From Candidatus Eiseniibacteriota bacterium (lineage in GTDB: Bacteria; Eisenbacteria; RBG-16-71-46), in the NCBI GenBank assembly GCA_963707915.1, contig OY970178.1:1120001-1184000 (forward strand): a stretch of DNA of 64,000 nucleotides, read 5' to 3'. Both the position numbers and the translations under genes were made by a program. This document shows positions 7,466-64,000 of this stretch, piece by piece; the stretch's first letter is position 1; each line of letters starts with the position of its first letter. Under the pieces are notes generated by a model. It worked only from the letters and a program-made list of their open reading frames with translations. It had not been told where the DNA came from and made no database searches.

Positions 7466-7486
7466 GGCGCTCCGGCACGTCGGGCC

Positions 7487-7513: not shown

Positions 7514-7587
7514 TCCTCAGGGTCCACTGGCATGGCCTCGCTCCCCTCACGAGGCCAGTCCACCACGGCTCATGGAGGAGGTTGGTC

Positions 7588-15864: not shown

Positions 15865-15868
15865 GAGC

Positions 15869-16993: not shown

Positions 16994-17117
16994 CGGCCCT
17001 CCGCGGGAGAAACCTACGGTGCGAACGGAGAGGTAGCACACGCCGCCCACGCAGGCAACGGAAGAGGCGACGACGAGCACCCGCGCGACCCCGGCCCGCG
17101 CGGGTGGGACCGTCTGG

Positions 17118-17146
17118 TTGAGCGCGCCGGAGGCGGCTGGTAGAAT
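17118..17146 (+). promoter_or_regulatory. Putative sigma70 promoter for the ppiD-like gene
   Basis: TTGAGC-N17-TAGAAT. Confidence 0.6.
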
Positions 17147-17196
17147 GGGCGGTCCCTTCTTCCCCACGTCGTTTCGTCCCGTTCCGGGAGCCCTGA

Positions 17197-26708: not shown

Positions 26709-26709
<1 letters not shown>
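24274..26709 (-). CDS. YfhO-family multi-pass membrane protein (GT-C glycosyltransferase-like)
   Basis: FWNPYVFAG.P, GHPQ, many TM helices, C-terminal VVADAW.PGW.V.VDG..LRGV.VP.G.H.V..RY.P. Confidence 0.85.
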
Positions 26710-27553
<844 letters not shown>

Positions 27554-27557
<4 letters not shown>

Positions 27558-28747
27558 GGCTCCACCCCCGCCCCCGCCGCCTCGAGCCGCGCGATGGCCT
27601 CGTGGCACCCGGCCAGCGTCGGGACCAGCGCGATGCGGACGAACCCCGCTCCCGCCGCGCCCAGGAACGAGCCCGGCAGCGCCACCAGGCCGATGCGCAG
27701 CAGGCGCTCGACGAACGCCACGTCGTCGCCGCCCGGGGCGGCGAGCCACAGGTAGAAGGTGGCCTCGCTGGCCTCGACACGCCAGCCGCGCCGGGCGAAG
27801 TACTCGAGGAAGAGCCCCCGCTTGGCCGCGTACTTCGAGCGCTGGTCGGCGGCGTGGGCGTCGTCGCTCCACGCGGCGATGGCGGCGGCCTGCACGAAGT
27901 CGGGCGTGGCCACTCCCACGTTGGGGCGGAAGCGGCGCAGCGCGGCGATCATGCGCGGATCGCCGGCGATGAAGCCCGAGCGGTAGCCGCTCATCGCGGA
28001 GCGCTTGCTGAGCGTGTGGAGTGCGACGACGTTCTCGAGCCCGCACTCCAGCATCGAGTGCGGGGCCGCACCGAAGAACAGCTCGGTGTAGGCCTCGTCC
28101 GCGACCACCCAGAAGCCGTGGCGGCGCGCCAGCGCCGCGACGCGCTCGAGGGCCGGGCGGTCCAGCATGGAACCGGTCGGGTTGTGCGGCGTGTTGAGCC
28201 ACAGCAGCGCGGTGCGGCGCCAGACCTCGTCGGGCACGCGCTCCGGCGCGAAGCGCCAGCCGTCCTCGCTGCGCAGCGGCGCCAGGTGGACGTCCGCGCC
28301 GGCGAAGCGCGCCGCGGGCTCGTAGACCGGGTAGGCGGGTGAGGGGATGACGACCGTGCGGCGCCCGGGGCCGCCCTGCCCCACCACGGCGAAGGCCATC
28401 AGGAAGACCGCCTCCTTCGTGCCGTTGGCCGGCAGCACCTCGGTCTCGGCATCGAGCGACACGCCGAAGCGGCGTGCGAACCAGCCGGTGAACGCGGTCC
28501 GCAGCGCCGGCTGGCCGGCCATCGCGGGATAGCTCGAGACCACCGGGACCGCGTCCCGCAGCGCCTCGCGGATGAACCCCGGGGTCTCCTCGCGCGGATC
28601 GCCCATGCTGAAATCGATCGGCTGGATCCCCGCCGGGGCGAGCTCCCGACGGCGGCGCTCGAGCGCGACGAACGGGTACTCGGGGCCGCCGGTGAGCAGC
28701 GGGTTCAAGGGCGCCGCCACGGCGGCGCTCCGGTCATCGGGCCTCAT
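27554..28747 (-). CDS. dapC: PLP class I/II aminotransferase, probable N-succinyl-diaminopimelate aminotransferase
   Basis: G.KEA.F, P.YPVY, WLN.PHNPTG, DEAY.E, TLSKRS..SGYRSGF; flanked by dapD and dapE. Confidence 0.88.
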
Positions 28748-29811
28748 CAGTCCCCCTCCGCGAGGAATCGTGCCAGGCAGTCGTAGGTGCGTGCCAGGTT
28801 CCCGACCGGGCAGTACTCGCCGGCGGTGTGGCTCTGTTCGGGCAGCCCCGGACCGAAGTTCAGCGCCGCCACCCCCAGCGCCGTGAAGCGGGCCACGTCG
28901 GTCCACCCCTGCTTGCCGGTCGCCTCGAGCCCGAAGCGAGTCACGAACTCGCGCACCAGCGGCACGTCCAGGCACACGAGGCCCGGGGGCGACTGGTCGG
29001 TGACGCGGAACTCGAACCCCGCCGGCACCAGCGCGCGCAGCCGCGCCTCGGCCTCGGCCGGCGTGCGGCCCGGCGGGTAGCGGTGGTTGAGGTTGGCCGT
29101 GAGCTGGTCGGGCACCACGTTCTTCGCGCCGCCGGCCTCCAGCCGCGTGACCTGCAGCGTCTCGCGGAACTCGACGCCCTGCACCACGACCGGCGTGACC
29201 GGGAAGCGCACGATCTCGGCGAGCCAGGGCGCGGCGCTCTCGACGGCGTTCACGCCGGTCCAGGGCCGCGCCGCGTGCGCGCTCTTCCCGCGCACGCACA
29301 CCTCCACGTGCATCGAGCCGTTGCAGCCCAGCTCGGCCTGCGCGGCGGTGGGCTCGAGCAGCACCGCGAGGGCCGCCTCGCGCAGCCAGGGCATCTCCGC
29401 CAGGACCCGGCCCAGGCCGTTGGCCTCGTGCGGACCCTCCTCCCCGTCGTAGAACACGGCAGCCAGGTCGAAGCGCAGCCGGTCGGGATCCAGCGAATCG
29501 AGCAGGGCGAGCATCACCGCGTCGCCGCCCTTCATGTCGCTCGCGCCGAGCCCGTAGAGCCGGTCGCCCTCGCGGCGCGCCCGTTCGTTGCCGTTCGGCG
29601 GGACGGTGTCGAGGTGCCCGGCGAGCACGACCAGCGGACGGCCGCGCCGCGGCCCCCGCCAGGCCACCGCGTCCCCCGAGCGCAGGCACTCCCCCGTGGC
29701 CCGACGCCCCAGCCGTCCCGCCACGAACCCGGCGATGGCGGATTCCCGGCCCGTGACGCTGGGGATGTCCACCAGCGCACCCAGCAACTCGGCGATGGCT
29801 TCAGGATCCAT
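28747..29811 (-). CDS. dapE: Succinyl-diaminopimelate desuccinylase (M20 family)
   Basis: AGHLDTVP, G.GASDMKGG, YD.EE, AH.ARPW.G.NA, GWTDVARF, NFGPG. Confidence 0.9.
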   Translation of the reverse strand: MDPEAIAELLGALVDIPSVTGRESAIAGFVAGRLGRRATGECLRSGDAVAWRGPRRGRPLVVLAGHLDTVPPNGNERARREGDRLYGLGASDMKGGDAVMLALLDSLDPDRLRFDLAAVFYDGEEGPHEANGLGRVLAEMPWLREAALAVLLEPTAAQAELGCNGSMHVEVCVRGKSAHAARPWTGVNAVESAAPWLAEIVRFPVTPVVVQGVEFRETLQVTRLEAGGAKNVVPDQLTANLNHRYPPGRTPAEAEARLRALVPAGFEFRVTDQSPPGLVCLDVPLVREFVTRFGLEATGKQGWTDVARFTALGVAALNFGPGLPEQSHTAGEYCPVGNLARTYDCLARFLAEGD

Positions 29812-29872
29812 GGAGGGTCTCGCGTGATGATCGAGGGTGGAGCCGCAATCTAGCACCCGTCGCGCGCTTGCG

Positions 29873-31642
29873 CTACCGGCGCACCGCGCCACGCGCACCG
29901 CGCCGGGGGGCCTCCGGCGCGCCCGCCCCGAGTTCGCGCGCGGCGGCCCGGACCTCTGCGTCGGCCGTGGGCAGGGCGGCGGCACGCGCGAGCCAGTCGC
30001 GCGCCGCGGCCCGGTCGCCGGCCGAGAGCGCACTGAGCCCGGCGTAGTAGAAGTAGTCCACGGAGTCGGGGAACGCGGCGGCGAGCTTCGCGTACTCCGC
30101 GGCCGTCCCCGGCCACTCCCCGCCGCGCGACAGCGCGATCGCGAGCCGCTCGTGGTCCTCGCGCCACAATGGGTCCTCGACGCGCGCCCGCGCGACGTCC
30201 TCGGGGCCGCGGCGGACCTCGATCCACCCGGCCAGGCTGTCGAAGCGGAAGAAGCGGTCGGGGCCCGCGGGCTCGCCCGCCCGGCGCGCGCGGAACTGCG
30301 AGAACAGCGCTCCGCTCACGGTCGGGTCCCGGAACCAGACCCGCAGCGCCGGGCCGTCCCCCTGCAGGAAGCCGACGTTGCTCGGCACGTCCGCGAAGTA
30401 GAACCGGCCGTGAGGCGGCGCCGCGGGGACTTTCGCCAGCAGGTCCCGCCGCATGAAGTCGATGAACTCCGCGGCGCGCCGCTGGTACCATTCGTCGCCC
30501 CAGTCGCGCGAGGCGGTGGCCGCCTGCAGCGGCCGCAGCAGCGCGAGGGCCGCCACCACCGCGAGCGCGAGGGCCGGACGACGCGCGAGCCGGGCCCCCA
30601 GCAGCAGCCAGGCGCCCAGCATGCCGAAGAGCCCGTAGTAGGCGTGCCAGCCCACCGTGGGCGCGAAGAGCGGCACCCAGCCGGCCACCGCCCAGGCGAG
30701 CGCCAGCCACGCGAGGCCGTGCCCGCGATCGCCCGGTCCCCACGTCGGACGGCGCCGCGCCCCGTGGCGGGCCAGCAACGGGAGCGCCGCCATCAGGGCC
30801 AGGCACGCCGCTCCGCCCGCGCCCACCAGCAGCGGACCTCCCCAGCCGTGCTCGGGGACCGGCAGGCGGTGGAGGTTCACGGTGGCGAGCAACGCGCGCA
30901 CCGCCACGCTCGAGGGCCCGTCGGCCACGACCGGCGGGGGCGGCGCCGCGACGACGTGCCAGAACCGCCCGCCGAGCAGCGGATGCACGGCCGCCCACAC
31001 CGCGGCCACCACCAGCAGCGGCGCGGTGCTCCACGCGGCCCGCGCCGCCGGCCGGCCCCGCGCCCGCCAGGCCAGCACGAAGGCCACCGCCGGCAACAGC
31101 GCCGCGGTCTCCTTGCTGAGCAGCGCCAGCAGGAAGAGCACCGCGGCGGCCGCGGTGCGCCCGCGCTCGAAGGCCAGGAGCGCGCCGAGGGCGAAGACCA
31201 TCATCCACAGGTCCTGCACGCCCGCGACCCACACGAGCGGCAACCCCCAGGCGGCCAGCGCGGCCACTCCCGCGGTCGCCACCGCCGCGGCCCGGTCGCC
31301 GGCCAGGCGGCGCGCCAGCGTCCAGTAGAGGCCCATCAGCGTCAGCCACAGCGCGAAGCTCGCCAGGTGATAGGGAGCGACGTCGGTCCCGAAGAGCCCC
31401 TGCAGGGTCCAGTAGTGCAGCTCGCGCGACCACGGCCGGTACCAGAGCCAGACCGCGGGGCGCGGCAGCCACAGCGAGAGGAACGACGCGCCGCGGGTCA
31501 CGTCCAGGAACACGTAGTCGTCGTTGATGAATGGCACGCGCCAGGCGTAGCCGTACTGGGTGGCGAGGAACACCGTCAGCAGGGCCGCCCCGACCGCCAC
31601 TCCGGGGACCGCGTTCCCTGCCGGACGGCCCCCGCGATTCAC
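29873..31642 (-). CDS. Multi-pass membrane protein, GT-C-like, with C-terminal TPR-like region
   Basis: F.NDDY, YRP, ALLSKE.A motifs; many TM helices; helical TPR-like tail. Confidence 0.7.
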   Translation of the reverse strand: MNRGGRPAGNAVPGVAVGAALLTVFLATQYGYAWRVPFINDDYVFLDVTRGASFLSLWLPRPAVWLWYRPWSRELHYWTLQGLFGTDVAPYHLASFALWLTLMGLYWTLARRLAGDRAAAVATAGVAALAAWGLPLVWVAGVQDLWMMVFALGALLAFERGRTAAAAVLFLLALLSKETAALLPAVAFVLAWRARGRPAARAAWSTAPLLVVAAVWAAVHPLLGGRFWHVVAAPPPPVVADGPSSVAVRALLATVNLHRLPVPEHGWGGPLLVGAGGAACLALMAALPLLARHGARRRPTWGPGDRGHGLAWLALAWAVAGWVPLFAPTVGWHAYYGLFGMLGAWLLLGARLARRPALALAVVAALALLRPLQAATASRDWGDEWYQRRAAEFIDFMRRDLLAKVPAAPPHGRFYFADVPSNVGFLQGDGPALRVWFRDPTVSGALFSQFRARRAGEPAGPDRFFRFDSLAGWIEVRRGPEDVARARVEDPLWREDHERLAIALSRGGEWPGTAAEYAKLAAAFPDSVDYFYYAGLSALSAGDRAAARDWLARAAALPTADAEVRAAARELGAGAPEAPRRGARGAVRR

Positions 31643-33549
31643 GGCCGCTTTCCGAGGGTCACCGTGACCTCGATCCTGCCCGCCTTGCGCTGGACCGCGA
31701 GCCGCACCGGCTGTCCCGGCTTCCGCGAGCGCAGCGCGTAGGCGTAGTCGTACAGGTTGTCGATGCGCACGTCGTCGAACTTCACGATCACGTCGCCCGG
31801 CTGGAGACCGGCCTGCTCGGCCGGGCTCCCCGCCCGCACCCCCGAGAGCAGCACGCCGCCCTCGGTCTGGGAGAAGTCCGGGATGGTGCCGAGGTAGGCG
31901 CCGTAGCCGCTCCCTCCCCCGATGCGCCCGGGCGTGCTGTCGGCCCGGGCCTTCAGGACGTGCGGGCGCGGGCGCGCGTCCAGCGACTCGACCAGGGCGG
32001 CGGCGAAGCGCGTCACGCGCCAGAGGCCCTGCCCATCGATCCGGTCCCAGGTGTCGGTCGGCCGGTGGTAGTCCGCGTGGGCGCCGGTGAAGAGCATCAA
32101 CACGGGCACCTGTCGCTTGTAGAACGAGGATTGGTCGCTCGGGCCGTAGCCGTCCCCCGAGGTCTTGAGGACGAAGCCGGCCGCGCGATTCACGTTCTCG
32201 ACCAGTGCCGGGAACTCCTCGGCCGTTCCGGTCCCCATGACCATCAGCTTGTCGTCCTGGAGACGGCCCACCATGTCCAGGTTGATCATGGTCTCGACGC
32301 TCGCGAGCGGCCGCGGCGGGCGGTCCACGAAGTGCGAGGACCCGACGACGCCCATCTCCTCGCCGGTGAAGGCCGCGAAGACCAGGTCGTGCTCCGGCCG
32401 CCATCCCGCGCGGGTCCGCTCCGCGAGCAGCCGGGCCGCGCCGAGCAACGCGGCGGTGCCCGAGGCGTTGTCGTCGGCGCCCGGGTGGACGACGCGCTCG
32501 TCGGGACGCAGCGAGCGCTCGCCGCCGAAGCCGAGGTGGTCGTAGTGGGCCCCGACCACCAGCACGCGCGCGGTGTCGCGGCCCGGGAGCAGGCCCACGA
32601 CGTTGCGGATGCCGGCGCGCGTGCGCGCCAGCGTGACGGTCATCGTCACCGAGTCGGGGATCGGGAAGCCGCGCGGCCGGGTGACGCTGTCGATGGCCAG
32701 CTGGGCCGCCAGCAGGCTGGTGCCCGCGCGGCGCATCAGCGCCTCGCCGAGCGAGTCCGCGAGCCAGCCCGCCAGCAACCCGCTCGACATGTAGCCCTGG
32801 CCGTCCGCGCGCGGCCGGCGCACCGGCTCGCCGGCGTGCCAGCGCGGGCCGTTCACCACCAGCAGCCCCAGCGCGCCGTGCTCGCGGGCGTTGATCGCCT
32901 TGGTGCGCAGCTCGGCGAACGGCGTGTTCACCGTGCCGTCGAAGCGGCTGGTCGAGTCCAGCTCGCCGGGTTCGTTCGAGAGCACCAGCACGATCCTGTC
33001 CCGCACGTCCAGCGCGGCGTAGTCGTCGTACTCGTGGCCCGGCGCCGTGATGCCGTAGCCGGCGAACACCACCGGCGCGGTGAGCGTGCCGTTGCTCGAG
33101 TATCCGAGCGGCTGGAAGGCGTCGCCGGCCTCGTGCCGCGCCCCGTCCACGAGGATGGCCGTCGGGCTCCCGACCTCCACCCCGGTGGTCACCTCGAAGC
33201 GCTGGCTCCAGGTGCCGCCGTCGCCGGCAGGCTGGAGCCCGATGTCCCGCATGGAACGCTCGATCCGCTCGGCCGCCCGCTCGAGCCCCTGCGTCCCGAC
33301 CCCGCGCCCCTCGAGCCCCGGGTCGGCCAGCTCGCGGACCAGCCCCAGCACGCGGGCGCTGTCGGAGAGCGCGCCCGCGACGGATGCTTCCCGGGCCACC
33401 GGTGCGGCGGCGACGGGCACGCGCCGGGGGGCGGCCGGCGGCTTCGGCACCCCCCCGAGGCGGCCCCGCTCGCCGATGGCCTGCGGGCTCGCCGCCCCGG
33501 CCGCTCCCAGCAGGAGCGCCGCCAGCGCCAGCGCCGGCAGGGACCTCAC
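31639..33549 (-). CDS. M28 metallopeptidase with PA and C-terminal PDZ domains
   Basis: Signal peptide, VFAGYGI, GAHYDHLG, GADDNASG, FTGEEMG..GS, NLDMVG, SDQ..F, DYHRPTD, YLGTIPD/GSPA..AGL..GD. Confidence 0.92.
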   Translation of the reverse strand: MRSLPALALAALLLGAAGAASPQAIGERGRLGGVPKPPAAPRRVPVAAAPVAREASVAGALSDSARVLGLVRELADPGLEGRGVGTQGLERAAERIERSMRDIGLQPAGDGGTWSQRFEVTTGVEVGSPTAILVDGARHEAGDAFQPLGYSSNGTLTAPVVFAGYGITAPGHEYDDYAALDVRDRIVLVLSNEPGELDSTSRFDGTVNTPFAELRTKAINAREHGALGLLVVNGPRWHAGEPVRRPRADGQGYMSSGLLAGWLADSLGEALMRRAGTSLLAAQLAIDSVTRPRGFPIPDSVTMTVTLARTRAGIRNVVGLLPGRDTARVLVVGAHYDHLGFGGERSLRPDERVVHPGADDNASGTAALLGAARLLAERTRAGWRPEHDLVFAAFTGEEMGVVGSSHFVDRPPRPLASVETMINLDMVGRLQDDKLMVMGTGTAEEFPALVENVNRAAGFVLKTSGDGYGPSDQSSFYKRQVPVLMLFTGAHADYHRPTDTWDRIDGQGLWRVTRFAAALVESLDARPRPHVLKARADSTPGRIGGGSGYGAYLGTIPDFSQTEGGVLLSGVRAGSPAEQAGLQPGDVIVKFDDVRIDNLYDYAYALRSRKPGQPVRLAVQRKAGRIEVTVTLGKRP

Positions 33550-54414: not shown

Positions 54415-56637
54415 TCAACTGCCCGCGCTGGTCTCGAGCACCGCGGCCCGGCGTTCGGCCCGCACGCGCCGCATCCAGACCATGAAGCGCAGGCGCTCCC
54501 GCACCTCGAGGTCGCAATCCAGCACCACCGTCTCCCCACGCGATTGGGCGGGCCCTTCGATGGCCACGGGCGATCCGGGCGTGGCCTCCACGGGCTCCTG
54601 CGATCCCTCGACGGGCCCGGGCACCGCGACCACGGAGGCCGCTTCGGTCTCGAGGGCCGGTCCAGCCACGGAGGCCACTTCGATCACGGGGGCCGCTTCG
54701 GCCACGGGGGCCGCTTCGGCCACGGGGGCCGCTTCGATCACGGGGGCCGCTTCAGCCACGGAGGCCACTTCGATCACGGGGGCCGCTTCGATCGCGGGGG
54801 CCGCTTCAGCCACGGGGGCCCCTTCGATCGCGGGGGCCGTCTCTACCTCCGGGCCCACTTCGACCTCGCGGGTCGCCTCCATCGCCGGGGCCGCTTCAGC
54901 CACGGGGGCCACATCGATCACGGGAGCCTCGATGGCGTCAGGCTGCGCGACGACCGCCCGATTCGCGGTGGGCGATGGACCGGGATGCTGCGCCGCGCCG
55001 CCGGACCGGGCTTCGACTCTTGCCTCCATCAACCAGTCCAGGTCGAAGCAGGAGAACGGGATGCCAAGTCGTTCGGAGAGTGCGACCGCCTTCCTCGGAA
55101 GTCGCGGTCCGGGCTCGGCCCACCACGCTTCGAGGACCCGTCCTCCCAGCGGCAGCGCAGCCGCGCGCGTGACCTTCGGCTCGAGGGCCAGGAGCACCCG
55201 GTCGAAGTGCCCGCGCGCATCCTCGAGCAGCGCGCTCAGCTTGTCCCAGCACGCCGCCCGCCCGGGATCGCCGTGGGCCAGGAAGAAGAAGCCGGTGACC
55301 CCCGCCGCCTGCACCGTCCCCAGCAGCGGGATCTCGCCCGCCATGCACTCGCCGAGGCCCCAGCGCAGGTTCCCGCCGAAGCGTTCGTGCAGCCTCAGAC
55401 GCATCCCCGCGTCCACCAGCAGGACGCGCTCGCCCCGCTCGGTGAACCCGCCGGCCAGCGCGGCCGCGGCGTCCCCGATGCGCGCGCGGTCCGGTCCGCT
55501 CACGAGGTGAAGCCAACCCAGCTCCGCGTCCCAGGCCCGGAGCGCATCGCGGGACAACCGCTCGGCGCGCGGGTCCGGCGCGGCCCGGAAACCACGGGGC
55601 GCCCGCGCGGCGCGCCGCCGGGAGCGCCGCAACAGCCACGGCGCGGAAAGGACCAGGGCGAGCGCGGCCCCGGCGAGCGCGCCCGCCGCGGTGAGCGCGC
55701 CCCAGGTCCGCGCGACGGGGATCGCCCGCGACGCGGGCCCCCAGGTGCCGTGCATGAAGACCGCCGCGGCGGGGTCCGGGGCCAGGCGCTCGAGCGACAG
55801 CGCCCGCCCGAAGGCCTCGCTCACCACCGCATCGTACTGGGACCTGGACAGGCCCGCCTCGAGCGCGCGTTCCGCCTGGTCGAGCAACGGCGCACGCGTC
55901 CGTTCGTGCCACCTCCACGCCGCCTCGATCCGCGCGCGCGGGTCAGGCGCCGGCTCCGCGGCCAGGGACCTCAGCCACTCCCCCTCGGCAGCCGCGCAGG
56001 CGGTGAGCGCGGAAGCCAGCGAATCCGGCCGGGCGGCCAGGGCCAGGCGCACGACTTCGTCCTCGGCCCGCGTCAGCCGCGCCCGCTGCGCCACGCTGGC
56101 CGGCGTCTCGAACGGGGCCTGCGGGGCCACACGCAGGTCCACCAGGGCGACCAGCAGCAACCGCGCCCGGACGAGCACCGCGCACTGGCCGGCGGGCGGC
56201 AGCGCCGTCGTCACCGTCGGTGCGGGTTCGGCACGCCAGCGCTGGCGGGCCTCGGCACGGCGCGCGGCGGATGCGTCCACCCCGCTCAGGCGGCGACGCT
56301 GCAGGTCGCGGGCGAGGGCCTCCGTCCCCGTGGCCGTGAACGAACGCACGGCCAGCAGCGTGCGGTCCCGGTCCGCGACGGGAGCGGCCTGCTCGCCTGC
56401 TTGCCTGGGCCGCGGCCACTCCCCGGGGGCGGGCGGACCTCCCTGCCAGGCCACGCGGGACTCGAACAGGGGGACGCCGACGACGGCGAAACGCTCGGAC
56501 GAGATCCCCAGGAGGCCGGCGACCGGCAGAGCGGCACCCAGCAGGGCGCCCGCCAGGATCGCGACGCCCAGGCGTCCCCGCGCACCGGGTCGGCGGGTGG
56601 CGTCCGGAGGATGGGTGGCGTCTTCCCTGGCGCTCAT
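54415..56637 (-). CDS. Membrane protein with degenerate Wzc/CpsD-like P-loop domain and acidic repeat tail
   Basis: Two TM segments flanking a large loop; HLVSG...A..LA..F...[15 protein letters not shown] resembles BY-kinase domains. Confidence 0.55.
54630..54935 (-). repeat. Intragenic 18-bp tandem repeat encoding (A-P-V/A-I/A-E-A/V)n
   Basis: Recurrent plus-strand unit CACGGGGGCCGCTTCG(AT/GC); protein [18 protein letters not shown]... Confidence 0.85.
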
Positions 56638-56732: not shown

Positions 56733-58526
56733 TCAGGCGGCGGCCGCCCTGCCTTCCGAACCCGTGTCGCCCGCTTCTTCCTGGCGCACGTCGGACCGCG
56801 GCAGGAGGAAGTAGAAGGTGCTGCCCTCGCCCGGCACGCTGTCGACGCCGATGGTGCCGCCGTGCTGCTCGACGATCCCCTTGCAGATCACCAGGCCCAG
56901 GCCCGTGCCTCCCACCCGGCGCGTGGAGCCGCTGTCGATCTGGGAGAACTTGCGGAAGAGCTTGTGGATGTCCCCGGGGCTGATGCCCTCGCCGCAGTCA
57001 CGCACGCTGACCCGCATCATCGGGCCCTCCGTCGCGACCCGGACCTCGATGCGTCCTTCGGGCGCCGAGAACTTGATGGCGTTCGACAACAGGTTGGTGA
57101 GCACCTGGGCGATGCGGTTCGAGTCCATCCGGAGGTCGGGCAGGCCGGGCTCGAAGCTGCAATCGAGGACGATGTGGCGCTCCGCGATCAGGGTGCGCAG
57201 GTTCTGCACCGCCTGCCGGACCACCGGCTCCAGGCCCTCGACCGCCATGCACATCGGCAGCGAGGCGGACTCGAGCTTCGAGAAGTCGAGGATGTCGTTG
57301 ATGAGCACCAGCAGCCGCTCGGCGTTGGCGTGGGCGATGTTCAGCAGCTTGGCCTGCTGCTCGTTGTTCTGGAAGTAGCGGTCGTCGGTGAGCAACTCCA
57401 CCGCGCCCTTGACCGACGTGAGCGGGGTGCGGATCTCGTGCGAGACCACCGCCACGAACTCGGACTTGAGGCGGTCGAGGACGCGGGTGTGCTCGTAGAG
57501 CCGCGAGTTGTGAACGGCGATGGCGGCTTCCGACGCGTAGAGCTCGAGGAACTTCTCGTCCGCCGCGCTGAACCCGCCCGGCTTGTCGAGCATGACCAGC
57601 AGTCCGAAGACCTGCTGGCCCGCCGACAGCGAGAGCGGCATCGCCAGCAGGGACTCGAACCGCTGCCCGCCGAGCAGCGGCAGCTCGATCGGGTGCTCCG
57701 CCGAGGCCACGCGGCGCACCGCCCGGTAGTCGGGGTGGTCGAAGCCGATGGCCCGCTCGGCCGTGAAGAAGTGGACCCGGTCGGCCTCGCCGCCCGGGAG
57801 CCCCAGCCCGTGGGCCGCGGCCACGCGGCCCTCCTCGGTCTCCTCGAGGCGCAGGTAGACCACGACGGCGCGGGCGCCCGACAGCTCGGCGGCCTTCGAG
57901 GCCACCGTGGCGACCCGCGGGTCGAGCTCGAGATCCGCGCTGATCTCCTTGCCCACCTCGTACAGGGTCCTCATCTGGTGGGTCGCCAGCCGGACCTGCT
58001 CGCGCAACTCCTGCTCGTGGTTGCTCAGGATCTCGTTCTTCTGGCTCAGCTCCTCGACCAGCTGGCGGTTGACGGCGCGCAGCCGGCGGTTGGCCAGCGC
58101 CCGCTCGACGCTGCTCTGCACGTCGTCCAGCTCGAACGGCTTGATGATGTAGTCGTAGGCCCCCTGCCGGATCGCGTCGATGGCCACGGCGGTGGTGGTC
58201 TCGCCGGTGATCAGGATGACCATGGTCTCGTCGTCCGCCTGCCGCGCGAAGCGCATCACGTCGAGGCCCGTGAGACCCGACATGTTGAGGTCGGAGAGCA
58301 CGGCGTCGGGCCGGTAGACGGGGATGCGCGCCACGGCGGCCTCGCCGTTCGCGGCCACCTCGACCTCGTAGCCGAGGGTGGTGAGGAACTCCTGCAGCAG
58401 CTCGGTGACCGTGGCCTCGTCGTCGACCACGAGCAGGCGGGCGGGCGGGCCGCCGCCCACCGCGGTCACGGGGCCGGGAAGCGGGCGGCCTTCGCCGGCC
58501 GGGGGCGTTCCGGGCTCACTGGACAC
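56733..58526 (-). CDS. Hybrid histidine kinase (REC-coiled coil-GAF-HisKA-HATPase)
   Basis: LLVVDDE..SDLNM..KPF, GAF-like segment, VSHEIRTPL, QVLTNLLSNAIKF, GGTGLGL. Confidence 0.93.
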   Translation of the reverse strand: MSSEPGTPPAGEGRPLPGPVTAVGGGPPARLLVVDDEATVTELLQEFLTTLGYEVEVAANGEAAVARIPVYRPDAVLSDLNMSGLTGLDVMRFARQADDETMVILITGETTTAVAIDAIRQGAYDYIIKPFELDDVQSSVERALANRRLRAVNRQLVEELSQKNEILSNHEQELREQVRLATHQMRTLYEVGKEISADLELDPRVATVASKAAELSGARAVVVYLRLEETEEGRVAAAHGLGLPGGEADRVHFFTAERAIGFDHPDYRAVRRVASAEHPIELPLLGGQRFESLLAMPLSLSAGQQVFGLLVMLDKPGGFSAADEKFLELYASEAAIAVHNSRLYEHTRVLDRLKSEFVAVVSHEIRTPLTSVKGAVELLTDDRYFQNNEQQAKLLNIAHANAERLLVLINDILDFSKLESASLPMCMAVEGLEPVVRQAVQNLRTLIAERHIVLDCSFEPGLPDLRMDSNRIAQVLTNLLSNAIKFSAPEGRIEVRVATEGPMMRVSVRDCGEGISPGDIHKLFRKFSQIDSGSTRRVGGTGLGLVICKGIVEQHGGTIGVDSVPGEGSTFYFLLPRSDVRQEEAGDTGSEGRAAAA

Positions 58527-59322
58527 CGGCGGCCTCCGCTGCGACCACCCGGCGGCGGCCGGCCTTGACGGCCAGCGCCAGGGCCCGTTCGGCGCGGTCC
58601 ATGAGCTCGACGCTCTGGAGGCCGTCGCGCGGGCTCGCCGCGACCCCGGCGCTCACGCCCAGGCGGCCGGCGCGCGCGAAGCGGTGCTCCTCGGTGGTGC
58701 GGCGCAGACGCTCGGCGACGCGCAGCGCGGCGATCGGCTCGGTCTCCGGCAGCAGCACGGCGAAACGGCCGCCGGGCAGACGCGCCAGCGCGTCCGTCTC
58801 CCGCAGGGCGAGCCGCAGGACGAGCGCGGCCTCTCCCAGCACGGCGCGGGCCACCGAGGCGCCGTAGCGCTTCGCCAGCGCCGGGAAGCGGTCCAGTTCC
58901 ACGATGGTCACCGCCAGCGGCGCACCGTGCACGCGCACGCGGGCCAGTTCGTCGTCGAGCCGCTGCTGGAAGGCGTGCGCGTCGGGCAGTCCGGTCGCGG
59001 GGTCACGGCCGGGCTGACGACGCAGCCGTTCCAGTTCGAAGCGCGCGCCGAGGGCGGCGCCGAGCGCGCCGGACGCGGCGCGCACGAGGCCGAGCTGGGC
59101 GGGCTGCCAGTGCTGGCCGCGGCGCGCGAGCAGCTCGATCGTCCCCACGCGCTCGCTGCCGCGCAGCAACGGGACCGCCAGGCAGTCACGCAGGTCGCCG
59201 GGCCGGACCGACCATTCCCCGCAGGTCTGCCAGGGCTCGAGATCGCCGGACGGGCCGCGCGCCCGCAGGATCACGGCGTCGCAGTCGAAGGCCGTGCGCA
59301 GGCCGGCCAGCGCACGTTCCAA
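58516..59322 (-). CDS. GAF-like plus degenerate GGDEF-domain protein (true start probably further upstream)
   Basis: RDPATGLPD, ELDRF, RYG, LRETD.LARLPGGRFAVLLP, VSAGVA, A..AL..A..AGR. Confidence 0.8.
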   Translation of the reverse strand: MERALAGLRTAFDCDAVILRARGPSGDLEPWQTCGEWSVRPGDLRDCLAVPLLRGSERVGTIELLARRGQHWQPAQLGLVRAASGALGAALGARFELERLRRQPGRDPATGLPDAHAFQQRLDDELARVRVHGAPLAVTIVELDRFPALAKRYGASVARAVLGEAALVLRLALRETDALARLPGGRFAVLLPETEPIAALRVAERLRRTTEEHRFARAGRLGVSAGVAASPRDGLQSVELMDRAERALALAVKAGRRRVVAAEAAGVQ

Positions 59323-59505
59323 GGTCTTGCGCTCGACCGCGGCCGAGAGCAGCGCCTCGCACGCCTGCCACAGCGAACGCGAAGCGCGGCGGCGCTCCCC
59401 CCCGCACCCTGCGGGTCGGAGGCGCGCACCGTCGCCGGCCCCGGGGCCGGCGGCGCGGCCGGGCCGGGCCGGCGCGTGCGGGCGGGGCCGGTGCGCACGT
59501 CCGGC

Positions 59506-59901
59506 TCAGGCCGCACGGGACGTCGGCTCCGATCCGCGCTCGCGGGCCAGCACCGCGAGGGCGGACTTGAGGGTGTTGAGCCGGTGCGCGGCGTCCCGGA
59601 TGCGATCGGACTCACGGAGCACGACCTCCAGTCGGTCCCGGGCCCCCGGGACCGCGCCGGCGGGTCCCATGAGCAGGAGCTGGGCGTTGCCGCGCACCCC
59701 CACGAGGGCATTGTTGATGTCGTGGTAGACGCCGAGCTGGCGGACCAGCTCGTCCGTCCACCGCAGGTGGTCCTGCCACCAGTTCTCCAGCGCGGCGCAC
59801 AACTCGTCCGAGAGCTCGCCCTGGCCCGCGGCCTCGAGGCGGCCGGCCACGTCCAGCAGGGCCGAGCGCAGCGCGGCGTGCGGGGCGCCGGGCATCGTCA
59901 T
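59506..59901 (-). CDS. Stand-alone HisKA/DHp-domain protein (no ATPase domain)
   Basis: H-box YHDINNALVGVRGNAQLLL and second helix RLEVVLRESDRI; 131 aa. Confidence 0.7.
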   Translation of the reverse strand: MTMPGAPHAALRSALLDVAGRLEAAGQGELSDELCAALENWWQDHLRWTDELVRQLGVYHDINNALVGVRGNAQLLLMGPAGAVPGARDRLEVVLRESDRIRDAAHRLNTLKSALAVLARERGSEPTSRAA

Positions 59902-59918
59902 GTCCGCCGGGGCCGGGC

Positions 59919-60806
59919 TCAAGCCGCCAGCTCCTCGCTCGCCAGCGCCTTGTGCAGCCGCAGCCGCAGCCGGGCCATGGCGCGCGTGTGGACCTGCGAG
60001 ACCCGCGACTCGGAGATCCCGAGCGTGCGGCCGATCTCCTTGAGCGTGAGGTGCTCGTAGTAGTAGAGCGCCACCACGAGCCGCTCCTGCTCGGGCAGCA
60101 GGTCGAGCGTGCGCAGCAGGACCAGGCGCGTCTGCTCGTCTTCGAGCCGCGCGTCCAGGTCCACGGCGTGCGGGTCCGGCAGGTGCTCGCCCAGCGTCGT
60201 GGACTCCTGGTCCTCGCTCGAACGGGCCTCGTCCAGCGACACGAGCACCGCCCCGCGGACGTGGTCGAAGAGCCGGTAGAACTCGTTGCGGTTCATCTTG
60301 AGCTCGCGGGCCAACTCGTCCTCGGAGGCCGCGCGACCGAGCTTCTGGTCGAGCGCGCGGGTCACGCCGTCCAGCGTGCGCGCCTTGCGGCGCATCGAGC
60401 GCGACACCCAGTCGAGCGAGCGCAACTGGTCCAGCACGGCGCCCTTGATGCGCCACACGGCGTAGGTCTCGAACTTCACGCCCTTGCGCAGGTCGAACTT
60501 GGCGTGCGCGTCCAGCAGTCCCAGGACGCCCGCCGAGTAGAGGTCCTCGTGGTCCACGTTGCGCGGCAGGGTGGTGGCCACGCGTTCGACCACGTGCCTC
60601 ACCAGCGGCGCGAAGCGGCTCAGCAGCTCCTCCTTCGAGTAGGTCACGGGCGCCGGCGCCGGCACCAGGCGCAGGACGCGGGGCGCCGCGCTGCCCGCGC
60701 GGGGTGCGGACGCGGCCCGGCCCGGGGCCGGGCCCCGGGTGCGCGCGGGTACGGCAGGCTTCGCAACGCGGGTGCGCGTGCGGGTCGCGGCGGAGGGGCG
60801 TGCCAT
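59919..60806 (-). CDS. fliA: RNA polymerase sigma factor, FliA/WhiG (sigma28) family
   Basis: DLYSAG.LGL, KFETYA.WRIKGA.LD.LR.LDW..RS.R, LYYYE.LTLKEIG..LGISESRVSQ.H; GAGGAG RBS. Confidence 0.93.
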   Translation of the reverse strand: MARPSAATRTRTRVAKPAVPARTRGPAPGRAASAPRAGSAAPRVLRLVPAPAPVTYSKEELLSRFAPLVRHVVERVATTLPRNVDHEDLYSAGVLGLLDAHAKFDLRKGVKFETYAVWRIKGAVLDQLRSLDWVSRSMRRKARTLDGVTRALDQKLGRAASEDELARELKMNRNEFYRLFDHVRGAVLVSLDEARSSEDQESTTLGEHLPDPHAVDLDARLEDEQTRLVLLRTLDLLPEQERLVVALYYYEHLTLKEIGRTLGISESRVSQVHTRAMARLRLRLHKALASEELAA

Positions 60807-60816
60807 GGGGTTCTCC

Positions 60817-61764
60817 TCAGGCTCCGAGCCGCTGGCGATCGCGACGTGCGTCCGCCGGCAGGCGCTCGGGGTGGGTCTCTTCGATCGGCGGCTCGGGCGG
60901 CGGCGGCGTCCACAGACGCAGGGCCAGGGCGCGGTAGGCCGCGGCGGCCGGCGACTGCGGGAAGGCGGTCACGACCGGCTCCTGGCGCCGCACGGCGCGC
61001 GGGATGGCCGGGTCCTCGGGGATCGCGCCGAGGGACTGGAGTTCGAGGTGCAGGAAGCGCCGGGCCACGAGCCGGATGCGGTGCGCGGTCTCCTCGGCCT
61101 CCTCGGCGCTGCTCGCCTGGCTCACCAGCAGGTACGGCGCCTTGCGGATGCCCTGGGCGCTCAGGACCTTGATCAGGCCGTAGGCGTCGGCGAAGGCCGG
61201 CATCTCGGGCGTCGTCATCACGATCACGTCGTCCGCGGCCAGGCACAGCGCGAGCGCGTCGCGCGTCACGCCCGAGGCCGTGTCCGCGATGACCAGGTCC
61301 GCCTCGCCGTCCAGCGTGCCGATGCCGCGCAGCAGGAGCTCGCGCCGGTAGTCGTCCAACTCGGCCAGCTCGGGCACGTCCGAGGCCGCGGGGATGAGGC
61401 GCACGCCGCCCGGCCCGTCCACCAGGACCTCCTCGAGCGTGCGCTCGCCGGCGAGCACGTGCTGCAGGTCGTAGCGCGGGTGGACCCCCAGCAACAGGTC
61501 GAGGTTGGCCTGCGAGAAGTCGGCGTCGAGCAGCAGCACGCGCGCACCGTTGTCGCCCATGGCCACCGCCAGGTTCGCGCACAGGTTGCTCTTGCCCACG
61601 CCGCCCTTGCCGCTCGCTACCACGAGCATGCGGGTGTGCGGGCGATCCCAGTTCGCGGGATGGTCGTGGAACGCGCCGGACGGCGCGACCCGCGGCATGA
61701 CGCGCAGCGGCCCCGCCGGGGACGGACCGCGGCGGGGGCCGCCGGAAGCGCGATCGGTGGCCAT
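60817..61764 (-). CDS. flhG: FlhG/FleN-like MinD/ParA ATPase
   Basis: ASGKGGVGKSN, LDAD...ANLD.LLG, PAAS, ADTASG, TTPE..A.ADAY.LIK; directly upstream of fliA. Confidence 0.85.
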   Translation of the reverse strand: MATDRASGGPRRGPSPAGPLRVMPRVAPSGAFHDHPANWDRPHTRMLVVASGKGGVGKSNLCANLAVAMGDNGARVLLLDADFSQANLDLLLGVHPRYDLQHVLAGERTLEEVLVDGPGGVRLIPAASDVPELAELDDYRRELLLRGIGTLDGEADLVIADTASGVTRDALALCLAADDVIVMTTPEMPAFADAYGLIKVLSAQGIRKAPYLLVSQASSAEEAEETAHRIRLVARRFLHLELQSLGAIPEDPAIPRAVRRQEPVVTAFPQSPAAAAYRALALRLWTPPPPEPPIEETHPERLPADARRDRQRLGA

Positions 61765-62021
61765 CAGTGGCCTGCGCCCGACCGGGTGGCGCGGGACCGT
61801 GGCGCGGCCGGCAGCGCGAAGAGCGCCGAGAGGAACTCCCAGTAGCGCAGCTGCTCGCGGCAGCGGTGCAGCGGCTCCTCGAGGCCGAGCCGCTCCAGGC
61901 GGCGCTCCTCCTCGCGCAACGAGGCCAGCGCGGCGCGCGACTGGTCGGCGCGCAGCGCGGGCGTGGGCGGGATGGCGCGGCGCGGGTCGGAGCGGGACGT
62001 GAGCGCGGGCTGGCGGTTCAC
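61764..62021 (-). CDS. Hypothetical 85-aa helical protein
   Basis: GTG overlaps the upstream stop and its stop overlaps the flhG ATG; amphipathic LASLREEERRLERLGL...QLRYWEFLSALF. Confidence 0.6.
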   Translation of the reverse strand: MNRQPALTSRSDPRRAIPPTPALRADQSRAALASLREEERRLERLGLEEPLHRCREQLRYWEFLSALFALPAAPRSRATRSGAGH

Positions 62022-62326
62022 GACGCCCTCCGCAGGCGCGCGGCCGGGGTCGCGAAGCGCGGCAGGCCCGCCCGCGCGACGCCGCCGCCGACCCGCTCGC
62101 GAAGCTGCGAGAGCAGCGCGGCGTAGGAGCGCTCGATGCGGGCGGCCGGGACGCCGAGCACGCTCGCCGCCTCGGAGGGCGTCAGGCGCTCGAAGAGCAG
62201 CAGGGCGAGGAGCACGCGTTCGCGCACGGCGCACCCGCTGAGGGCGCGTGCCACGACCTCGCGGCAGTCGTGCCGGGGGAGCGCGACCAGGCGGTGCGAG
62301 GACGGGGCCGGACGGCGCGGGCGCAT
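62018..62326 (-). CDS. Stand-alone sigma70 region-4 (FliA sigma4-like) HTH protein
   Basis: RERVLLALLLFERLTPSEAASVLGV...RI aligns without gaps to the C-terminus of the neighbouring FliA. Confidence 0.7.
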   Translation of the reverse strand: MRPRRPAPSSHRLVALPRHDCREVVARALSGCAVRERVLLALLLFERLTPSEAASVLGVPAARIERSYAALLSQLRERVGGGVARAGLPRFATPAARLRRAS

Positions 62327-62727
62327 CAGGCGGCCCTGCGCTGCGGCCGCACGTCACGGAGGTCCGCCGCCCGCCGCAGCGAACGGTGCACGGCGTGGCG
62401 GAGCGCGTCCATGGCGAACGGCTTGGGGAAGCACTCGAAGACGCCGGCGGCGGCGAGCGCGCGCAGCGTCTCGGGGCTGCCGTAGGCGGTCAGGATGATG
62501 ACCGGTAGGGTCCGGCGGCTGCGCGCCAGCTTGCGGGCCAGGTCGAGACCGCTCATGCCCGGCAGGCGCAGGTCGGAGATCACGAGGTCGCACTGGTCCT
62601 GCTGCAGCCAGCCCAGCGCCTCCTCCGCGGACGAGAACGTGTCGATGCTGAAGCCGTCGTCCGAGAGCCCCTCGGCCAGGGCCCAGGCGGTGCTCGGTTC
62701 GTCTTCGACGATCAGGATGTGGGGCAT
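62326..62727 (-). CDS. Single-domain response regulator (receiver only)
   Basis: ILIVEDE, DLVISDLRLPGMSG, IILTAYG, FPKPF. Confidence 0.92.
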   Translation of the reverse strand: MPHILIVEDEPSTAWALAEGLSDDGFSIDTFSSAEEALGWLQQDQCDLVISDLRLPGMSGLDLARKLARSRRTLPVIILTAYGSPETLRALAAAGVFECFPKPFAMDALRHAVHRSLRRAADLRDVRPQRRAA

Positions 62728-62763
62728 GAGCGTGGATCTCCGTTGGGTGCGGGAGCCTCGATT

Positions 62764-62780
62764 TGCACCCCGCGTGCCAG
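62764..62780 (-). promoter_or_regulatory. Sigma54 -24/-12 promoter for the REC-sigma4-flhG-fliA operon
   Basis: CTGGCACG-CGGG-GTGCA, near consensus, 36 nt upstream of the first ATG and downstream of a bEBP gene. Confidence 0.8.
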
Positions 62781-63195
62781 CAGGAGACCCGGTGCCGCGG
62801 AGGCGGGCCGCGGGGCCCGGGAGGAGGCCGGGAGCCGGGTCGGCGCGCCCGCCACCTCGTTCACGCGCGCAGGATTAGCCCTGCCGGGCCGGGGGCTGGC
62901 GCGCGTGCCCCGCTCCCCGGGGCGGAGGCGTCGACCCGGCCGTGTCGCAACGGGCAAGCCCGGCCTTGCAGGATGCCCGCCCAACCTCGTTCCGCCCGGG
63001 TCCCTCGCGCGACCGCTTCTTGACCGCGGGTGGCCCGGGAGGGGCCCGGCGTGTGCGCGTCGCGCCGGGCCCCCGGGAAGCGCCCACGCGCGGGGAGCGC
63101 CGCGACCCGGCCGGGGCCGGGCGGCCGGGGACGCGCGCCCCGCCCGCGGCGGCGTGCGCCGCCGCAGAACGCCCGGAGGAGGGACCTTCAGCCGA

Positions 63196-64000
63196 TCAGA
63201 GGTCCTCGCCCGCCTCGTCCGGGTCGTCGCCGAGCGCGTAGTCCTTGAGCTTCGTGCGCAACGTCTGGCGCGAGATGCCCAGTTGCTTCGCGGCGAGCGT
63301 CTTGTTGCCACCGCACACTGACAACGCGTGCTCGATCGCCAGCTTCTCGACCTCGACCAGCGGCCGCACCACTCCGGGCAGGAACACCCCCGCCGCCGAA
63401 GCCGGGGCGCGGGGCCCCCCGCGCGTTCCGGTCACCTCCGGCGGCAGGTGCTCGACGCGGATCTCGTCCTCGGCCTCGAGCAGCACGACGCGCTCCATCA
63501 GGTTCCGCAGCTCCCGGACGTTTCCCGGCCAGGCGTAGTCGAGCAGCACGCGCAGGGCGTCGGGGTGCAGCCGCGCCGTGGGGCGGCCCAGCTCGCGGCA
63601 GAACTGGGCGACGAAATGCTCGGCCATGAGCGGCACGTCCTCACGGCGCTCGCGCAGCGGCGGCACCTCGATGGGGACCACGTTGAGGCGGAAGTAGAGG
63701 TCCTCGCGGAAGCGCCCCTCCGCCACCGCCTTCGGCAGGTCGCGGTGGGTGGCGGCGATGACGCGCACGTCCACGGTGATGTCGCTCCCGCCGCCCACGC
63801 GGCGGAAGGTGCGGGTCTCGAGGACGTGGAGCAGCTTGGCCTGCAGGCCCGGGGTCATCTCGCCGATCTCGTCGAGGAACAGCGCGCCGCCGTCGGCCAG
63901 CTCGAAGAGGCCCTTCTTGAAGCGCTTGGCGTCGGTGAAGGCGCCCTTCTCGTGTCCGTACAGCTCGCTCTCCAGCAACTGCTCGGGGATGGCGCTGCAG
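63196..64000 (-). CDS. Sigma54-dependent enhancer-binding protein (AAA+ and Fis HTH; 5' end outside the window)
   Basis: [57 protein letters not shown]. Confidence 0.93.

Follow-up and report, generated by a model that had tools for sequence, protein, structure and literature searches.

Excerpts of one study of Pseudomonas putida describe a flhF-fleN-fliA operon that depends on sigmaN and FleQ and is antagonised by FleN (PMC6424431). By analogy, this FleQ–FleN–FliA cascade of Pseudomonas is the closest described logic for the operon that we report here, which we regard as a variant of it, from a 64,000-nucleotide (nt) stretch of the genome of a Candidatus Eiseniibacteriota bacterium (GCA_963707915.1, contig OY970178.1, positions 1,120,001 to 1,184,000; the whole stretch is hereafter called the window). 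An open reading frame (ORF) listing and Pfam and NCBIfam scans place eight intact genes on the minus strand of the window, from 62727 to 56733. These encode, in order, a stand-alone receiver (REC), a protein that consists of sigma28 region 4 alone (sigma4-only), an 85-residue orphan (orf85), a FlhG-type ATPase, the sigma28 factor FliA, a DHp-only protein, a GAF–GGDEF protein, and a REC–GAF–HisKA–HATPase kinase. The host is an uncultured bacterium of soil and sediment; Candidatus Eisenbacteria are known from metagenome-assembled genomes, and to our knowledge the phylum has no cultured member. We suggest that this operon is probably the regulatory remnant of an ancestral Eisenbacteria flagellar cluster, a sigma54-to-sigma28 cascade that would now drive a mostly non-flagellar regulon.

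As in the FleQ/FlrA–FleN/FlhG–FliA systems of Pseudomonas and Vibrio, a sigma54 promoter and an enhancer-binding protein would drive a MinD-type ATPase and fliA on one predicted transcript; as in FleQ–FleN–FliA, cyclic di-GMP (c-di-GMP) enters the circuit, here by prediction, and the ATPase is placed to feed back on the activator. Unlike in that cascade, the Eisenbacteria operon lacks flhA and flhF, its ATPase has neither the DQAxxLR motif nor a membrane-targeting end, another five signalling genes are included, and the unit persists where no flagellar genes are found. Unlike FleQ, the Eisenbacteria activator is of the phosphorylatable NtrC type and comes with a dedicated kinase. Among the matches listed, we did not find the module described in the literature on Eisenbacteria flagella or on FliA, FlhG or sigma54 in non-flagellated bacteria.

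WhiG, RsiG and c-di-GMP control type IV pili in Rubrobacter, and RsiG binds c-di-GMP through E(X)3S(X)2R(X)3Q(X)3D, according to excerpts of a second study (PMC8325347). Of the described systems, this one comes nearest, by analogy, to a sigma28 put to new use without flagella: like WhiG–RsiG, the Eisenbacteria operon would keep a sigma28-family factor for non-flagellar outputs, with c-di-GMP involved and a small helical-hairpin protein encoded nearby. It differs in that the RsiG motif is missing (0 of 66 small proteins: 0/20 orf85, 0/29 DHp-only, 0/17 sigma4-only), the c-di-GMP candidate is the I-site of a degenerate GGDEF domain, the phylum is another one, and control is by sigma54. Sigma28 without flagella is known from few lineages, such as Actinobacteria with WhiG, whose outputs there include sporulation.

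Evidence for flagellar descent comes from family f2, in which the best match to the operon's FliA lies directly after flhA-flhF-flhG. The head of the f2 locus in genome G025 carries genes for a HEAT protein, a kinase, the activator (59% identical to that of the window), a TGGCAC-N5-TTGC promoter, REC (50%), CheR, another receiver, the sigma4-only protein and a TPR protein; the middle holds a second kinase/activator pair, fliF through fliR, flhB, flhA, flhF, flhG, and fliA; and the tail consists of two unknown ORFs, HDOD, GAF–GGDEF, REC–GAF–kinase, Wzi, and valyl-tRNA synthetase (ValRS) genes. The right-hand neighbours in the window agree with those of G025, running through the kinase, the 740-residue protein X740, an epimerase, glycosyltransferases, Wzi, and ValRS. 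Because the f2 orthologues stand on either side of an intact flagellar cluster in the same place on the chromosome, the reading that fits the operon best is that of a regulatory skeleton left from an ancestral cluster. The comparison is most simply explained by a loss, in f1 and f3, of the structural genes that lay between the head (activator, REC, sigma4-only) and the tail (flhG, fliA, GGDEF, kinase). Such descent would explain why flagellar genes are missing around the operon. The sequence-only reading, made earlier from the letters and ORFs of the window, had noted that flhA, flhF and che genes, the usual neighbours, are absent; this is true of the window, where no flagellar or che operon occurs within 64 kb and the sole chemotaxis-type gene encodes a methyl-accepting chemotaxis protein (5718–7634), but not of the genome, which has a full cluster about 0.5 Mb away.

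In a maximum likelihood tree rooted with two other sigma factors of the window's genome, operon-type FliA proteins form a clade (support 97/92) that follows taxonomy and includes the flagellar-context FliA of f2, and the FliA proteins of the f1 flagellar clusters make up a separate, long-branched clade (99/99). A FastTree phylogeny of FlhG, rooted on the genome's MinD-like gene, has the same shape, with the operon type sister to the f2 FlhG that follows flhF. To judge from these phylogenies, the operon holds the copies of FliA and FlhG that the lineage inherited vertically. FliA belongs to the FliA/WhiG family, exceeding the cut-offs of TIGR02479 (242.4 bits versus 189.6) and NF005413 (227.1 versus 201) and containing Sigma70_r2, r3 and r4; flagellar genes surround its f2 orthologues, though not the copy in the window.

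The operon has also outlived the organelle in many relatives. Operon-type FliA (E ≤ 1e-72) was found in 37 of 40 related genomes, with one further partial match at a contig end, and FlhA in only 8 of 40 (36/39 and 8/39 if the unpublished genome G026 is left out). Operon FliA is carried by 17 relatives that are at least 90% complete and have no FlhA. That relatives keep the operon after loss of the flagellum suggests that an old motility switch has been reused for something else.

Locus comparisons covered 36 loci around the best FliA match, taken from 36 related genomes (f1, 22 loci; f3, 8 loci). Colinearity was called by tblastn with identity thresholds, and most incomplete loci reflect contig ends or identity below threshold. 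Synteny across relatives, the check that the sequence-only reading had called for, showed a gene set that stays together rather than one that is scattered: the full set of eight is colinear in 14 of the 36 loci, and a subset of six (REC, FlhG, FliA, DHp, GGDEF, kinase) in 20. The genes are thus together and colinear across a family, with a reduced form extending across an order and class of Ca. Eisenbacteria; at class level the unit comprises the activator, REC, sigma4-only, FliA, a 95-amino-acid (aa) DHp, GAF–GGDEF, and the kinase, without FlhG or orf85. The kinase is 39–90% identical down to class level and always last in the unit. The ratio of nonsynonymous to synonymous substitution rates (dN/dS) was below 1, as under purifying selection, in all 29 pairwise comparisons, made for six genes against up to five relatives, and ranged over 0.17–0.29 for FliA, 0.14–0.44 for REC, 0.29–0.42 for FlhG, 0.30–0.75 for sigma4-only, 0.35–0.76 for DHp, and 0.31–0.76 for orf85. 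Frameshift debris was considered as an origin of the three small ORFs and ruled out, since their lengths are stable among relatives (sigma4-only 79–114 aa in 17 loci, orf85 74–91 aa in 20, DHp 94–138 aa in 29).

The positions of the operon genes and of the features around them are collected in Table 1. All eight part types listed in the sequence-only reading were borne out by the ORFs and the Pfam and NCBIfam scans, as was its description of mostly overlapping or near-abutting genes. Four junctions overlap (REC/sigma4-only, sigma4-only/orf85, orf85/FlhG, and GGDEF/kinase) and two are gaps of about 10 nt (FlhG/FliA and FliA/DHp), the exception being the 183 nt that separate DHp from the first canonical start of the GGDEF gene. 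The window has a G+C content of 72–79%, and the genome is one contig of 3.62 Mb, to which coordinates prefixed C1 refer.

Table 1. The operon, its promoter region and adjoining genes, with positions given in the window.
Feature	Position	Strand	Evidence or remark
NtrC-type sigma54 activator (REC-AAA+-HTH_8), C-terminal two thirds	63196-64000	-	Sigma54_activat, AAA_lid_14, HTH_8
Conserved element GAACGAGGTTGGGCGGGC	62975-62992	-	213 nt upstream of sigma54 promoter
Second copy of element, GAACGAGGTGGCGGGCGC	62845-62862	-	83 nt upstream of sigma54 promoter
Sigma54 (-24/-12) promoter TGGCACGCGGGGTGCA	62779-62764	-	37 nt ahead of REC ATG
REC, stand-alone receiver, 133 aa	62326-62727	-	Response_reg 98.6 bits
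Sigma28-region-4-only protein, 102 aa	62018-62326	-	Region-4 matches below cut-off
orf85, 85 aa, no family	61764-62021	-	ORF; disordered N-terminal part and helical hairpin
FlhG/FleN-lineage MinD/ParA-type ATPase, 315 aa	60817-61764	-	Pfam ParA/CbiA/AAA_31
FliA (sigma28, FliA/WhiG family)	59919-60806	-	TIGR02479 FliA_WhiG
DHp-only HisKA protein, 133 aa	59506-59907	-	Pfam HisKA 25.4 bits versus 26.9 cut-off
GAF(partial)-GGDEF protein	58516-59322	-	GGDEF 87 bits
REC-GAF-HisKA-HATPase kinase, 597 aa	56733-58526	-	Pfam, all four domains
X740, 740 aa, no family, weak Wzc/EpsG-like P-loop region	54415-56637	-	No Pfam match

The near-consensus sigma54 promoter that had been proposed ahead of REC is well conserved. 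It reads TGGCACG-N4-GTGCA in the window, with the -24 GG and -12 GC correctly spaced, and in 27 of 28 loci TGGCA[CT]-N5-NTGC recurs 30–84 nt ahead of the REC start, within flanking sequence that has diverged. By eye, a sigma54-type promoter also precedes the f2 orthologues, and the window's genome encodes rpoN at C1:1106373-1106849. The N-terminus of the activator and its partner PAS–HisKA–HATPase kinase extend past the window end, just upstream and in the same orientation; in its full frame the activator has the D, T and K residues of a receiver and a GAFTDA loop. Searches with tblastn (≥50% identity) found the activator in 18 of 22 f1 loci and 6 of 8 f3 loci, and the PAS kinase and activator pair lies directly upstream in every locus that reaches that far. 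Farther from REC but ahead of the promoter, 13 of the 19 f1 intergenic regions contain the 9-mer GAACGAGGT (≤1 mismatch) at 212–228 nt from the promoter, on its upstream side, and a second copy at the 83-nt position is confined to the window and its three closest relatives. The two copies form a direct repeat with the pattern GAACGAGGT[TG]G..GCGGGC, and the GAACGAGGTTGGGCGGGC element may be a binding site for the activator. An Rfam scan of the 651-nt promoter region returned no matches at E ≤ 1. A search of sequencing runs with the operon listed no RNA run and 24 DNA runs, none of which contained more than 0.10 of the words sampled.

The gene directly upstream of the kinase/activator pair is csrA (C1:1186132-1186380), preceded by a sigma28-type motif in the window's genome. 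The same arrangement of csrA upstream of the pair is found in 20 related loci, in 15 of which the sigma28 motif stands ahead of csrA. With csrA and its motif placed beside the kinase/activator pair, sigma28 may feed back on the unit that would drive fliA.

Sigma28 promoters have a consensus of the TAAA/TCAAG-N15-GCCGATAA type. The pattern TCAAG (≤1 mismatch)-N14-18-CCGATA matched 42 sites in the window's genome versus 8 in reversed-sequence controls, and a stricter pattern 29 versus 1, counts that do not say which sigma factor uses the sites. The first ORFs downstream of these sites encode two HDOD proteins, HEAT and TPR proteins, two hybrid kinases with Hpt, a PAS kinase, a GAF protein, CsrA, LptC, a TonB receptor, and a D-Ala-D-Ala carboxypeptidase, together with pilB-pilT-pilC, pilMNOPQ, a PilT-like gene, flagellin, a motA-like fusion, and a cheY-like gene. 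Five relatives (93, 86, 99, 92, and 100% complete) have no match to FlhA, flagellin or FliF and no second FliA, and in these the strict motif occurs at 10, 11, 12, 10, and 17 sites versus 0, 0, 5, 0, and 0 for the control pattern. The motif is shared ahead of orthologues of a 573-aa HEAT protein in all five relatives, of a 690-aa TPR protein in three, and of a 351-aa HEAT protein in two, and in single cases ahead of those of the GAF protein, a hybrid kinase, csrA, and others. As HEAT, TPR and HDOD genes are located inside the f2 flagellar cluster, the retained regulon looks like an accessory part of the old flagellar regulon.

We propose the following mechanism. The activator, phosphorylated by its PAS kinase, would fire the sigma54 promoter, and FliA would then transcribe a TCAAG-N15/16-GCCGATA regulon that includes csrA and possibly the kinase/activator genes, which would give a feedback loop. 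The FlhG-like ATPase, free of FlhF and of the membrane, would restrain the activator by analogy with the action of FleN on FleQ. The kinase, the DHp-only protein and the receivers may exchange phosphoryl groups, and the degenerate GGDEF domain may sense c-di-GMP through its I-site. More speculatively, the sigma4-only and 85-aa proteins could replace the secretion-dependent FlgM checkpoint, and the C-terminal Ala-Ala tails could mark FliA, DHp and REC for proteolysis.

Several points weigh against a retained, mostly non-flagellar cascade. No operon-type FliA was found in two same-genus relatives, which are 96% and 87% complete. The sigma28 promoter calls rest on a consensus from the sigma28 literature and on a crude ORF caller, and one recurrent motif, at C1:2916274 (+), lies inside a kinase-GAF-HD_5 ORF and is conserved there in four relatives, where it may be an internal promoter or reflect a coding constraint. 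Type IV pili were considered as a conserved output and set aside: the pilM motif is kept in two of five relatives and the pilB motif in one of four examined, so rarely that no clear output function emerges. A gap of 296 nt separates csrA from the kinase/activator pair, which may be transcribed apart from it. The flagellin, motA-like and cheY-like genes of the genome's flagellar cluster carry sigma28-like promoters, and the operon FliA could still serve flagella. Finally, the steps that link FlhG to the activator, and those of phosphorelay, c-di-GMP and proteolysis, are ones that we infer.

The sequence-only reading had taken the operon for a self-contained phosphorelay and c-di-GMP switch that sets sigma28 activity much as CckA–ChpT–CpdR–PopA act in Caulobacter, in which the kinase would pass phosphoryl groups through the DHp phosphotransferase to the lone receiver and the dead GGDEF protein would serve as a c-di-GMP-dependent adaptor; by extension, the sigma factor would be subject to regulated proteolysis. 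We consider this rather unlikely as a whole. The Caulobacter circuit combines a receiver-bearing kinase, a histidine phosphotransferase, a single-domain receiver, and a dead I-site GGDEF protein, and the same kinds of parts are all present and co-inherited here, so that far the analogy stood. It did not extend to family membership, which none of the four proteins showed, and the Pseudomonas FleQ/FleN/FliA logic is closer. The conserved kinase/activator pair and csrA with its sigma28-type promoter, directly upstream, belong to the conserved unit, which is therefore not self-contained as had been claimed.

Individual proteins carry evidence both for and against such a phosphorelay. REC keeps the acidic pocket, phospho-acceptor Asp, Thr, and Lys in 28 aligned orthologues, but scores 50.5 bits with the CpdR equivalog NF046022, whose cut-off is 180, and so falls outside CpdR. 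The DHp-only protein has the H-box HH[DE]INNALVGVRGNAQLL with its phospho-accepting His in 27 of 29 orthologues, 26 of the 29 match Pfam HisKA at E ≤ 0.01, and even the 95-aa f4 orthologue retains this box; the closest solved relatives are the DHp regions of the kinases LvrB and ZraS. Only DHp regions match over its 95–138 aa, with no catalytic or CA-like domain, whereas ChpT and Spo0B carry a CA-like second domain. A D-x-x-N follows the His, at what we take to be the position of the HisKA phosphatase motif. In alignments, the DHp of the upstream PAS kinase is a little closer to the protein (37% over 67 residues) than is the DHp of the operon kinase (29%), a weak hint that the protein acts on the receiver of the activator. 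The kinase had been called a hybrid, and REC and kinase domains are indeed joined in it, with the receiver at the N-terminus and not the C-terminus.

The claim of a dead GGDEF with an I-site likewise held, as a derived state of family f1. The motif reads PGGRF in the window, and RETD, an RxxD I-site, lies five residues upstream. Across relatives the active site is mostly GGDxF in f1, degenerate in f3, and intact (GGDEF or GGEEF) in f2 and f4 orthologues; f1 no longer has the N-R pair that binds GTP, and RxxD is kept throughout (R..D at ≥90% in the consensus of 28 orthologues). Retention of the I-site while the active site decayed favours the phosphorelay reading, but because f2 and f4 orthologues have an intact GGDEF, a role as c-di-GMP receptor would itself be derived, and from these alignments the dead domain with an intact I-site is a derived, lineage-specific state. 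Its GAF–GGDEF architecture also differs from the REC-REC-GGDEF of PopA. As a separate observation, a conserved N-terminal peptide, ERRRASRSLWQACEALL, is encoded upstream of the first ATG, GTG or TTG of the GGDEF gene (window 59323-59505, minus strand), in the same frame as the DHp stop codon, and is common to relatives. A fusion of DHp with GGDEF through read-through of the stop codon was considered and set aside: the two ORFs share a frame in the window, but by the coordinates used they lie in different frames in one relative (L007).

REC, FliA, DHp, and the kinase, half of the operon's eight proteins, have C-terminal Ala-Ala, compared with 61 of 1735 ORFs genome-wide (3.5%). It is kept in 24 of 29 DHp and 25 of 35 FliA orthologues, the DHp proteins ending in RAA in 18 of 29; sigma4-only proteins end in R[RK]A[SA] in 13 of 17. 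CtrA-type substrates of ClpXP end in Ala-Ala, so the operon resembles the Caulobacter circuit in having possible substrates with this ending as well as in the kinds of its parts. It is unlike that circuit in its domain orders and in what is controlled, a sigma factor instead of a response regulator, and proteolysis is conjectural here.

A sigma mimicry partner switch, in which the sigma4-only protein acts as a decoy that titrates an anti-sigma factor (orf85 or DHp-like) and so replaces the FlgM checkpoint, seems improbable to us, though much about the decoy itself fits. The only NCBIfam models that the sigma4-only protein matches are ECF, WhiG, and FliA ones, in each case within region 4 and short of the cut-off, and its f4 and f2 orthologues pass Pfam Sigma70_r4. 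For its AlphaFold model (predicted local distance difference test score, pLDDT, 77.5), the best matches are region 4 of sigma28 in 1rp3, a crystal structure of sigma28 with FlgM (root-mean-square deviation 1.0–1.3 A over 63–66 residues), and WhiG in 7lq4, so that in modelled fold as in sequence, including tblastn cross-matches, it is most like region 4 of sigma28/WhiG. Among 17 orthologues the recognition helix is poorly conserved and the conserved residues lie in the preceding helices, as would suit a decoy. The gene always adjoins that of a receiver and stays with fliA down to class level. In the five genomes searched, a Pfam FlgM match was found only in the flagellated f2 genome G025, and none in the window's genome or three non-flagellated relatives; thus no FlgM can be recognised for the f1 sigma28, and the sigma4-only, orf85 or DHp proteins could stand in for it. 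The f2 genome, however, has the sigma4-only gene together with FlgM and flagella, and the decoy can therefore not have arisen as a replacement for FlgM.

The candidate partner orf85 is less easily fitted to such a switch. It occurs in f1 and f3, where the locus has lost the flagellar genes, and its profile finds 532 homologues at E ≤ 0.001, of which the 120 listed are all unnamed or 'hypothetical' and without a Pfam domain; orf85 itself has no Pfam or NCBIfam match. The AlphaFold model (pLDDT 84.6) is a two-helix hairpin with helices at 21–45 and 48–69, R41, L42, R44, G46, C54, R59, W61, and F63 are invariant, and an f3 homologue carries an RYWQF motif. No match to Pfam FlgM was found, a comparison with the protein atlas gave no match ≥0.9, and a fold search returned generic helical hairpins only (Rop, bacterioferritin), all at E > 1. 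Neither an FlgM nor an RsiG signature marks it as an anti-sigma factor. In class-level loci orf85 co-occurs with FlhG rather than FliA, and FlhG fits at least equally well as its partner. PhyR–NepR–EcfG is the sigma-mimicry partner switch of Alphaproteobacteria, and the operon resembles it in having a sigma-like domain linked to a receiver beside a sigma gene and a small helical protein. It differs in that the mimic would be region 4 only, sigma28-like and not ECF, and encoded apart from the receiver, and that the anti-sigma is only a candidate. A composite version, in which a cytoplasmic checkpoint made of flagellar leftovers has replaced FlgM, with the sigma4-only decoy and orf85 as a partner switch on FliA or the FlhG-like ATPase, gated by the DHp phosphotransferase/phosphatase and REC, the dead GGDEF reading c-di-GMP, and Ala-Ala tails shortening the lifetime of FliA, DHp and REC, is one to which we would give little credence.

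The flagellar cluster elsewhere in the genome, where the sequence-only reading had advised looking for flhF, flgM and flagellin, lies at about C1:1672000-1712000; flhF and flagellin are in it, and Pfam FlgM is not matched. It contains flgB/C-type rod genes, fliE-F-G-H-I, flgD-E, fliL-M-P-R, flhB, flhA, flhF, flhG, and fliA, as well as flgF-G-A-H-I, flgN, flgK, flagellin, a second sigma54 activator, and cheA/cheW. Its flhG and fliA are 36% and 40% identical to those of the operon. The assembly splits flhA among three frames and has flhG, at its 3' end, frameshifted into fliA. Several other flagellar ORFs match just a portion of their Pfam models, and in every DNA-level alignment used to count indels at these frameshifts, small compensating gaps prevail. 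Either the cluster is decaying or the frameshifts are assembly indels. Also in this region, a 976-aa ORF (C1:1678115-1681045) combines MotA_N, MotA_ExbB, a receiver, and HD_5 (HD-GYP-like), an uncommon fusion of stator and signalling domains, with a sigma28-like motif upstream.

The operon FlhG has kept its ATPase signature and lost the features tied to FlhF and the membrane. The deviant Walker A SGKGGVGKS with its signature lysine is invariant or nearly so in 29 orthologues. DQAxxLR, reportedly the FlhF-activating N-terminal motif of FlhG and so named in a 2022 bioRxiv preprint, is missing from 29 aligned operon-type and f2 FlhG proteins, and MDQAAALR, DQADALR or DQAQGLR is present in four of six FlhG proteins of f1 flagellar clusters, MDQAAALR in that of the window's genome. 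A C-terminal amphipathic membrane-targeting helix is a trait of the FlhG family; operon FlhG proteins end in ..ERLEA or RLGA versus ..LEGFLRRV in f2, and by eye the membrane-targeting end is missing. It is doubtful, then, that the operon is a second, still flagellar regulatory set for the number, placement or late genes of the flagellum 0.5 Mb away, since, for all that the genome has such a cluster, with sigma28-like promoters before its flagellin, motA-like and cheY-like genes, and that the operon's FliA and FlhG descend from flagellar-context genes, the cluster has its own flhF, flhG (with DQAxxLR), and fliA, its flhA and flhG are frameshifted in the assembly, the operon FlhG lacks the FlhF-activating motif and the membrane-targeting end, and the operon FliA persists in relatives without FlhA.

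Beyond the kinase, X740 starts after 95 nt and is present in 13 of 22 f1 loci by tblastn, and its membership of the operon is uncertain. It matches NCBIfam Wzc at E 2.7e-4, far under the cut-off, and its C-terminal part is long, repetitive, and rich in Ala, Pro, Val, and Glu. Epimerase, PMT_2, GT2/glycosyltransferase, and Wzi genes follow, and then ValRS; this surface-polysaccharide cluster abuts the operon in f1, f3 and f4. Elsewhere in the window, a second PAS kinase and NtrC-type sigma54 activator pair lies at 14512-17167 on the minus strand, and long overlapping ORFs (1168 and 843 aa) without a Pfam match at 24277-32404 were unresolved by a composition-based gene caller.

The survival of a flagellar regulatory hierarchy after loss of the organelle is rarely visible, and here its stages can be seen within one phylum: a full cluster in f2, a regulator-only operon in f1 and f3, a form without FlhG at class level, and a genome in which the remnant coexists with a second flagellar cluster that is apparently decaying. 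Three conserved small proteins without a known role (sigma4-only, orf85, and DHp-only) are encoded next to a well-understood sigma factor, and through them sigma mimicry, HisKA proteins that lack the CA domain, and FlhG function without FlhF become testable with purified proteins. If the composite cytoplasmic checkpoint does exist, it would be a new way of controlling sigma28, and would also exemplify how, in an uncultured phylum, rewiring can turn a motility regulon into a switch for behaviour in general.

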